Origin: Shigella phage ESh24 | Direction: 5' to 3' (one strand) | Sequence record: ON528734 | Length of the DNA: 64,000 bases | In this document: positions 29,912 to 30,724 of the stretch, piece by piece | Position numbering within the stretch: position 1 is the first letter of the stretch | Layout of the letters: each line of letters begins with the position of its first letter | Made by a program: the position numbers and the translations under genes | Notes under the pieces: generated by a model | What the model was told of the DNA's origin: nothing | Database searches by the model: none | The model's input: only the letters and a program-made list of their open reading frames with translations

Positions 29912-30724
29912 TTATTCGACCTTCTTAAATTTGCAATTGTCAAAATGGTATCTTTTAGCGTGAGACTTATCCATGATTTTAGAACAGTGCGGGCATTTTA
30001 ATTTTTCTCTGCTATGAGATACACCCGTGATAACTTTGCATTTATCGCCGTGGTATTTTCCATAATTTCCTACATCACATATAATTCCGCAATGCGGGCA
30101 ATTTCTCTTTTCGACTTTTGCAAGACCCTTAGATAGTTTATTTAAATACTTTTCGTATTTTTGGGGGTCACTTTTAAGCTCAGACCAAAAATCTTTCATT
30201 TGTTTAGAACATCTTTCTTTATATTCTAACATTTCGTTTTCTGATAACGATTCCAAATATTTCACAGAAGCTTTTCGAATATTTGCATTAACTTCTTTTC
30301 TCTTTTCATCTGTCCATAAAGATTTAGTTTTTTTAATGCCTTTTCCGGCTTTTTTAATTCGTTCCTGTTTTAAATTTGGTGATAGATTCGCCCAAAACTT
30401 TTTAATGGTTTCTGATCTAATTTTAGATGTTTCCTCTTTAATCCATCCGTAATCTTTACTTACAATTCTCTGCTCTTTTGTACCCTTGGAGAATTTTATT
30501 AAGGCATAAGCCATTTCAGAATTTCGGTGTATTTTAAAAAGAAGCTCATGCGCAAAATAGTGTTCTCTTGCTGTCAGTAAAACCCTGTTTTCTCTAGAGT
30601 CATCTCCTCCCATGGATTTTGGGACAATATGGTGTGATTCTGTATAATAATCTAATTTTTTCTTATTAAGACCTCTTTTAAGAGATCTTTCTATAAGAGA
30701 GTTGTAAATTTTAGTATAATTCAT
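29912..30724 (-). CDS. free-standing HNH homing endonuclease with tandem C-terminal Cys/His zinc-finger-like modules
   Basis: 270 aa; HNH core [32 protein letters not shown]; two CPHC...H...C modules at the C-terminus; sits between neck genes 13 and 14; stop is 2 nt from the gp14 ATG. Confidence 0.85.

Follow-up and report, generated by a model that had tools for sequence, protein, structure and literature searches.

What is the open reading frame (ORF) that separates the neck genes 13 and 14 of Shigella phage ESh24, and how did it come to lie there? We analysed a stretch of 64,000 nt of this T4-like phage (ON528734), hereafter the window, in which an earlier note had described a 270 aa ORF wedged between the two neck genes. 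The ORF is indeed present at 29912-30724 on the minus strand (270 aa plus a TAA stop), and the gene order on that strand is wac, gene 13, the ORF, gene 14, gene 15, gene 16, and gene 17. The features around the ORF are the following.

31682-33139, minus strand: wac, the fibritin gene
30721-31650, minus strand: gene 13 (neck protein, 309 aa), the upstream host gene, 98.4% amino acid identity to T4 gp13
29912-30724, minus strand: putative free-standing Mob-class HNH homing endonuclease gene (from the ORF, PHROG 655, HNH_4, and the similarity to MobE)
29140-29910, minus strand: gene 14 (neck protein, 256 aa), the downstream host gene, 99.2% amino acid identity to T4 gp14

The ORF is not a chance reading frame, because its homologues reach an E value of 3.8e-175 and hundreds of them have E < 1e-16. 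It is a separate ORF, outside any intron or intein, and the reading frames of genes 13 and 14 are both intact. No paralogue was found elsewhere in the 64-kb window. From its sequence and by analogy with known systems, we consider it very probable that this is a free-standing Mob (HNH) homing endonuclease gene that is lodged exactly at the 13/14 junction and spreads by homing.

The 270-aa protein scored 24.4 bits with the Pfam model HNH_4, just above the cutoff of 22, and it matched PHROG 655 ('homing endonuclease'), which is also the PHROG recorded for T4 MobE, over its whole length (E=2.7e-52). A search of a large protein collection returned 419 homologues at E<=1e-5, most of them with NUMOD3 (PF07460) and/or HNH Pfam domains. 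With the help of alignments of these homologues and of an AlphaFold2 model (mean pLDDT 94.4), the protein was divided into the following parts.

30485-30724, minus strand: N-terminal HNH (beta-beta-alpha-metal) nuclease domain, residues 1-80 (predicted)
30548-30640, minus strand: predicted catalytic core, residues 29-59, with H31, H32, N46, H55, and H59 (from conservation and the AlphaFold2 model)
30119-30460, minus strand: helical linker and presumed DNA-binding region, residues 89-202 (five long helices), corresponding to the NUMOD3-repeat region of homologues
30035-30112, minus strand: zinc-finger-like module 1, residues 205-230, with C209/C212/H225/C229 (predicted strands 206-208 and 215-217, helix 218-224)
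29930-30007, minus strand: zinc-finger-like module 2, residues 240-265, with C244/C247/H260/C264 (predicted strands 241-243 and 250-252, helix 253-259)

The modelled HNH core, in which pLDDT exceeds 95, has a beta-beta-alpha arrangement (strands 29-32 and 47-50, helix 52-66); it is followed by five long helices (residues 89-202) and by two beta-beta-alpha finger modules with pLDDT of ~90-95. Eleven positions of the nuclease domain (Y3, Y7, E29, H31, H32, P35, G40, N46, H55, H59, and L62) were invariant in an alignment of 81 homologues. The HNH core that the earlier note had read from the letters is therefore intact, its His and Asn residues being retained, not lost, on careful alignment. The same was true of the two tandem CPHC zinc-finger-like modules that it had pointed out. 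The ligand spacing C-x2-C-x12-H-x3-C occurs twice (each time as CPHC-x12-H-x3-C), and the ligands are conserved in homologues, those of the last finger (C244, C247, H260, and C264) being invariant in the 81-homologue alignment and those of the first finger (C209, C212, H225, and C229) in an alignment of 22 sequences. In this latter alignment the finger repeat has the consensus CPHCxK-x7-9-(R/K)(W/Y)HFDNCK and is present in 1-4 copies per homologue. None of the Pfam zinc-finger models matched the protein at cutoff. Foldseek gave local matches of the nuclease domain to Cas8-HNH (probability 0.97, E=0.16), to the Gme HNH nickase, and to McrA, and weak matches of finger module 1 to DNA-bound C2H2 fingers (CTCF, ZFAT).

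As judged from sequence and model, the protein is a nuclease of the HNH (beta-beta-alpha-metal) superfamily, with the conserved His...Asn...His motif on a hairpin and a helix, and its C-terminal modules are Cys2-His-Cys zinc-finger-like, with a predicted beta-beta-alpha fold. The published architecture of the Mob class is an HNH domain with a C-terminal zinc finger (PMC10448857; PMC2988022). The similarities in sequence assign the gene to the Mob class of T-even free-standing HNH homing endonucleases.

BLASTP comparison with T4 MobE, whose gene lies between nrdA and nrdB, gave 33% identity over residues 1-230 (E=6e-29), and the two proteins can be aligned end to end. They share the nuclease domain MNYxKIY...HHIxP...GG...N...LTAREH..AH and the same domain order, with a helical/NUMOD3 middle part and a C-terminal CPHC...H..C finger. 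Both genes appear as promoterless cassettes between conserved genes and need upstream transcription, and the target of MobE also contains a cluster of polymorphisms that separates carriers from non-carriers (PMC2790892). The differences concern the insertion site (the late structural operon, at 13/14, for the window gene; the nrd region for MobE), the number of finger modules (two in the window protein, one in MobE), the internal terminator (present in mobE, none found in the window gene), and the position of the carrier-specific polymorphisms, which lie <=20 bp from the insertion in the present case, while MobE nicks ~120 nt into nrdB. By tblastn, mobD (of RB3) and other Mob-type genes of T4-like phages were found to be 45-50% identical to the window protein in the N-terminal 110 residues; the C-terminal halves of several Mob-like genes could not be aligned with it. 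The tblastn matches also included homing endonucleases that, like MobE, adjoin nrdA/nrdB across T4-like phages.

The structural paradigm for MobE-type enzymes is I-HmuI of Bacillus phage SPO1, an intron-encoded two-domain HNH nickase (PMC2790892). Unlike the gene of the window, which is free-standing, I-HmuI is intron-encoded, and it was not seen among the Foldseek fold-search matches. It has, to our knowledge, no Cys2-His-Cys fingers.

We next consider the distribution of the gene. The T4 genes 13 and 14 are 1 nt apart (last nucleotide of gene 13 at 94553, first of gene 14 at 94555) and enclose no gene, which bears out the statement of the earlier note that T4 has nothing at this junction; none of the five T4 mob genes is found there (PMC2988022). 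The junction is similarly empty, and arranged as in T4, in T2, RB10, RB68, AR1, and others. In a phage collection, we found 46 records with the gene at the 13/14 junction, among which are three T6 records. When compared with the pool of ~500 records that contain genes 13-14 at >=90% identity to T4, this means that carriers make up ~9% of the close relatives (46/~500) and that the gene is absent from ~450 of them, including T4 and T2. The ORF is thus not a core gene present in all close relatives including T4: most of these (~90%), T4 and T2 among them, have nothing at the junction, in agreement with its reading as a mobile insertion. By tblastn, we found 46 records with a copy of >=95% identity, the next best matches being <60% identical and at other loci.

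T6, one of the phages that the earlier note had proposed for comparison, itself carries the endonuclease gene. In T6 and 45 other Tequatrovirus GenBank records, this gene is found in the same place and joined to its neighbours in the same way, the T6 copy being identical at 813/813 nt; their flanking alleles differ. Many carrier records, including the T6 RefSeq entry, annotate the gene as 'homing endonuclease' or 'HNH endonuclease'. The gene is thus already present in T6 and in public annotation and is an ordinary member of a well-known class. We found in the literature no experimental study, gene name, or specific description of the T6-type gene. The label 'hypothetical protein' that it bears in several T6-like records should read homing endonuclease.

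We also looked at 'T4_ev151' (LR597660.1) as a possible evolved T4 that would document the acquisition of the gene. Its gene 13 is only 96% identical to that of T4, and this phage is a T4-like mosaic, not T4, which tells nothing about an acquisition; no paper on the origin of Escherichia phage T4_ev151 was found. A 154 aa protein from a Logan contig of 3622 bp (P0005) was 95% identical to the endonuclease over 49% of the length and may correspond to a truncated or frameshifted copy.

The distribution bears on the idea that the nuclease has been domesticated and serves the phage, either as a late weapon against co-infecting rivals or as an HNH accessory of the terminase (genes 16/17). In HK97-like packaging systems, an HNH protein partners the terminase, and the present gene belongs to the late structural/packaging operon, in which the terminase genes come two genes further downstream. 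Furthermore, an intron homing endonuclease is reported as mediating interference competition between co-infecting phages (PMC11620839). However, the gene is missing from T4, T2, and ~90% of close relatives, which package normally, and the combination of an HNH domain, NUMOD3-type helices, and fingers is the Mob homing architecture, not that of the small terminase-associated HNH proteins. Domestication seems to us highly improbable.

How exactly is the gene fitted between its neighbours? The two junctions are as follows.

T4 junction: ...CCT CCA TTT GGA ATT TTG GTA GGT TAA T ATG GCT...
Window junction: ...CCT CCG GTG GGA GTG TTA GTT GGA TGA ATT ... GTC GAA TAA T ATG GCT...
30721-30741, minus strand: recoded 3' end of gene 13 (nt 910-930), CCG GTG GGA GTG TTA GTT GGA TGA
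29908-29923, minus strand: right junction, with the gene 14 Shine-Dalgarno sequence within the last endonuclease codons, followed by TAA-T-ATG

Alignment of the 13-14 junction with T4, T2, and T6 set the boundaries of the insertion, the site being empty in T4 and T2 and filled in T6. Formally, the ORF body of 810 nt (ATG...GAA) takes the place of a single T, which in gene 13 is the third position of the final Gly codon. At the left end, the ATG of the endonuclease overlaps the stop codon of gene 13 as ATGA (30721-30724). At the right end (GAA TAA T ATG), a single nucleotide (29911), and not 2 nt as the earlier note had it, separates the endonuclease stop from the ATG of gene 14, as read directly from the sequence. 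The note was right in placing the ribosome-binding site of gene 14 within the endonuclease coding sequence: an AAGG is found at 29920-29923, 9 nt upstream of the start and inside the endonuclease ORF. The Shine-Dalgarno sequence of gene 14 in T4 is an AGG, 5 nt upstream, inside gene 13.

It had also been proposed that the insertion was accommodated by recoding of the junction. This turned out to apply to the left side, where the last 20 nt of gene 13 contain 8 substitutions by comparison with the T4 counterpart (CCA TTT GGA ATT TTG GTA GGT TAA), leading to F304V and I306V in gp13. The recoding gives the new TGA stop, which makes the ATGA overlap possible, and it places a GGAG 10 nt before the start codon of the endonuclease. 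It does not apply to the right side, where the TAA-T-ATG (29908-29914) is the same as at the T4 13/14 junction.

An ATGA stop/start overlap is the native arrangement of genes 13 and 14 in several other T4-like genera, for example ...GTAGGATGATGAAT in L008 and ...ATCGGATGAATAATAAG in L017. The end of the carrier-type gp13 (GVLVG) resembles the TGVLVG of these L008/L017-type phages. This is a hint that a different lineage may have been the source of the recoded 20 bp.

To see how far these differences extend, we aligned genes 13-15 of 10 carriers (the window, T6, FL33, G9062, CrRp10, YUEEL01, fPS-2, F26, RPN226, and a metagenomic contig) and 12 non-carriers (T4, T2, RB10, RB68, AR1, slur11, PEC04, pSs-1, WL-3, and three IMG/VR genomes). 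The flanks contained 311 variable sites (149 in gene 13 and 162 in genes 14-15). Only 8 of these were fixed differences between carriers and non-carriers, namely nt 910, 912, 916, 918, 921, 924, 927, and 929 of gene 13, all <=20 bp from the insertion; there was none in genes 14-15. At every other variable site, the difference in allele frequency between the 10 carriers and the 12 non-carriers was <=0.56. The recoded left junction was matched at >=93.1% over its full 87 nt in 46/46 carrier records. No recoded cluster was found at empty sites, the best of 592 full-length empty-site matches being 93.1% identical (7 mismatches). The AR1 junction, which we read for this best class of empty sites, has exactly the T4-type end of gene 13. 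A search for endonuclease-free phages with a carrier-type gene 13 end, which could have been resistant alleles or excision footprints, found none, the best empty-site match being the T4-type one of 93.1%.

The endonuclease gene itself was intact in 10/10 copies, with complete catalytic and ligand residues, and its mean pairwise identity was 98.5%. Its variable codons comprised 29 with synonymous changes only versus 12 with amino acid changes. Gene 13 was 95.4% identical when carriers were compared with one another, 95.3% for carriers against non-carriers, and 94.9% within the non-carriers, so that carriers do not resemble each other in their flanks more than they resemble non-carriers. Between the window and T6, the endonuclease was identical at 813/813 nt, and the identity was 94.5% for gene 13, 95.7% for gene 14, and 81% for wac. 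All three wac allele types were found among carriers. Conservation of the gene on unrelated flanks fits a recent horizontal spread, and the pattern is that of an element that passes from genome to genome, actively or passively, irrespective of its surroundings.

The identity tracts that the window and T6 have in common beside the gene are very short (left, ~60 bp; right, ~17 bp). Co-conversion typically covers more than this, so that recombination at a later time has to be assumed.

As to wac, at least 3 strongly diverged allele types were observed (~93%, 81%, and 78% identity to that of the window, in a comparison of the window, L002, and L073-L086). They are shuffled independently of genes 13-15 (94-98% identical), with a sharp mosaic boundary at the wac/13 intergenic region.

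These data have to be set against the possibility that the endonuclease was formerly mobile, no longer homes, and is kept because it is wedged between essential genes, its patchy distribution resulting from ordinary recombination between T-even phages. The gene 14 Shine-Dalgarno sequence and the gene 13 stop both come from the element, so that its clean loss would be difficult. The very short identity tracts around the gene and the carrier frequency of only ~9% would also suit such a history, and T4 does have defunct endonuclease genes, e.g., I-TevIII (PMC2790892). Yet all 10 copies are full length with every catalytic and ligand residue in place, most of the variable codons are synonymous, and the gene is far more conserved than its flanks, the window and T6 sharing it on backgrounds that have diverged by 4-5%. 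In addition, the same junction is held across phages with neck proteins that are ~70% identical (see below), as expected for an active site-specific element. We consider it unlikely, though less so than domestication, that the gene is such a relic, and we retain the interpretation of an element that spreads by homing.

How would such a gene be expressed? No exact T4 late promoter (TATAAATA) was found on the minus strand from 38057 to 25965, and the late-promoter matches inside the endonuclease ORF all had one mismatch. No terminator-like site was found on the coding strand within the ORF, and the RNA folds at both junctions were weaker than those of shuffled controls (z-scores of +1.1 and +1.6). 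The lack of a late promoter or terminator in these searches suggests that expression probably occurs by read-through and translational coupling. On its sequence, the endonuclease gene is a promoterless cassette within the late wac-13-14-15 gene string. Its transcription would come from read-through of the upstream late mRNA, and a low level of translation from termination-reinitiation coupled to gene 13. mobE and six other free-standing endonuclease genes of T4 are also promoterless and depend on upstream transcription (PMC2988022; PMC2790892).

MobE and MobA nick one strand of a polymorphic target near their own insertion site (PMC2988022; PMC2790892). By analogy with these two enzymes, we infer that the window protein has a cleavage activity and where its target lies. 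During a mixed infection with an endonuclease-free relative such as T4 or T2, the enzyme would nick or cut the rival genome at or beside the empty junction, in the predicted target region 5'-CCTCCATTTGGAATTTTGGTAGGTTAATATGGCTAC-3', the break in the T4/T2 empty junction being placed near TTGGTAGGTTAATATG. Through the recombination-dependent repair of T4, both the gene and the adjoining recoded 20 bp of gene 13 would then be copied from the donor genome. The carrier would be immune because its site is split by the insertion, because of the 8 substitutions in the adjacent 20 bp, or both. Since there is no other carrier-specific polymorphism in genes 13-15, a sequence-based immunity would require a target that includes the junction itself. 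On the other hand, disruption of the site by the insertion may be sufficient for immunity, since the orthologues in the metagenomic contigs L070 and L072 (see below) lack the recoding. The 8 substitutions could serve immunity to self-cleavage or provide the translation start of the endonuclease (ATGA and GGAG), or they could be hitch-hiking donor sequence that recombination is unable to remove.

No paper on the activity, cleavage site, or biased inheritance of this gene was found in the literature. Within the Mob family, we know of biochemical data for MobE and MobA only. The present gene adds to this family one member with a clean and well-defined insertion anatomy, and its stakes are modest; it offers a concrete predicted target, the empty T4/T2 13/14 junction, and 8 carrier-specific substitutions as candidate immunity determinants. 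The carrier T6 and the predicted targets T4 and T2 are all phages in standard laboratory use.

The 13/14 junction was found to be occupied in more distant phages as well. Three metagenomic orthologues (P0002-P0004), with 51-57% identity, also lie directly between homologues of genes 13 and 14, and these neck-gene homologues are only 69-79% identical to those of the window. The left end of the orthologues showed the ATGA overlap in one of the three cases and a 9-nt spacer in the other two (L070 and L072), which keep the ordinary PPFGIL(I/L)G end of gp13. At the right end, the L070-L072 orthologues finish with a purine-rich GGGG, AAGGAG, or AGAGG just before the ATG of gene 14.

In other T4-like genera, the junction contained ORFs of 194-211 aa of the Seg/GIY-YIG type, as follows.

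L030, 3927-4562: Seg-like GIY-YIG ORF
L039, 4000-4584: Seg-like GIY-YIG ORF
L067, 355-969: Seg-like GIY-YIG ORF

The ORF of L039 was above the Pfam SegE_GIY-YIG cutoff, and those of L030 and L067 matched I-TevI DNA-binding or NUMOD3 models below cutoff. These Seg-type genes resemble the window gene in the junction that they occupy and in their lifestyle, and they borrow or overlap the start of gene 14; for example, the ORF of L030 begins with the codons that open gene 14 itself (MATY...) and at its other end overlaps the gene 14 ATG. They differ from it in their catalytic domain (SegE_GIY-YIG, with an I-TevI-type DNA-binding domain), which is unrelated to HNH and therefore indicates an independent invasion of the junction. 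In sequence terms, insertion at the 13/14 junction is thus recurrent and involves two nuclease families that are unrelated to each other, the Mob-like HNH and the Seg-like GIY-YIG one. For the nrd region, Sandegren et al. reportedly described in 2005 how one endonuclease gene had been exchanged for another in the same position.

A broader proposal is that the junction is a site on which the two nuclease families have converged and where a late enzyme may act as an interference weapon, nicking the neck/packaging operon of rival genomes at the time of DNA packaging, and may have become entrenched. An enzyme made late may do more than drive its own inheritance, and the element may be entrenched because the gene 13 stop and the gene 14 ribosome-binding site come from it. 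We regard this proposal as unlikely and keep to that of a homing endonuclease gene spreading at this junction.

Several irregular loci were noted in the course of this survey. The L070 contig, which has the 51%-identical orthologue at 13/14, contains a second, different Mob-like ORF (198 aa, 1621-2217) between genes 14 and 15, with an HNH motif, a NUMOD3 Pfam domain above cutoff, and one CPYC...H..C finger, so that two endonuclease genes bracket gene 14. The region 4160-4933 of L060 looks scrambled, with duplicated gene 13 fragments and the N-terminus of gene 14 fused to an endonuclease. BYEP02 (OR757454.1) was considered as a possible remnant of the element (179 bp vs 102) and rejected, the extra sequence being a 77-bp tandem duplication of the start of gene 14. 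This duplication (~1255-1410) follows directly on the 13/14 junction and breaks up the neck genes as annotated; it is probably an assembly error, not biology. Finally, G9062 (MK373779.1) has ~55 nt inside gene 14 that all the other phages lack, with a truncated annotated gp14 (558 nt), which could represent an assembly artefact or a small insertion.
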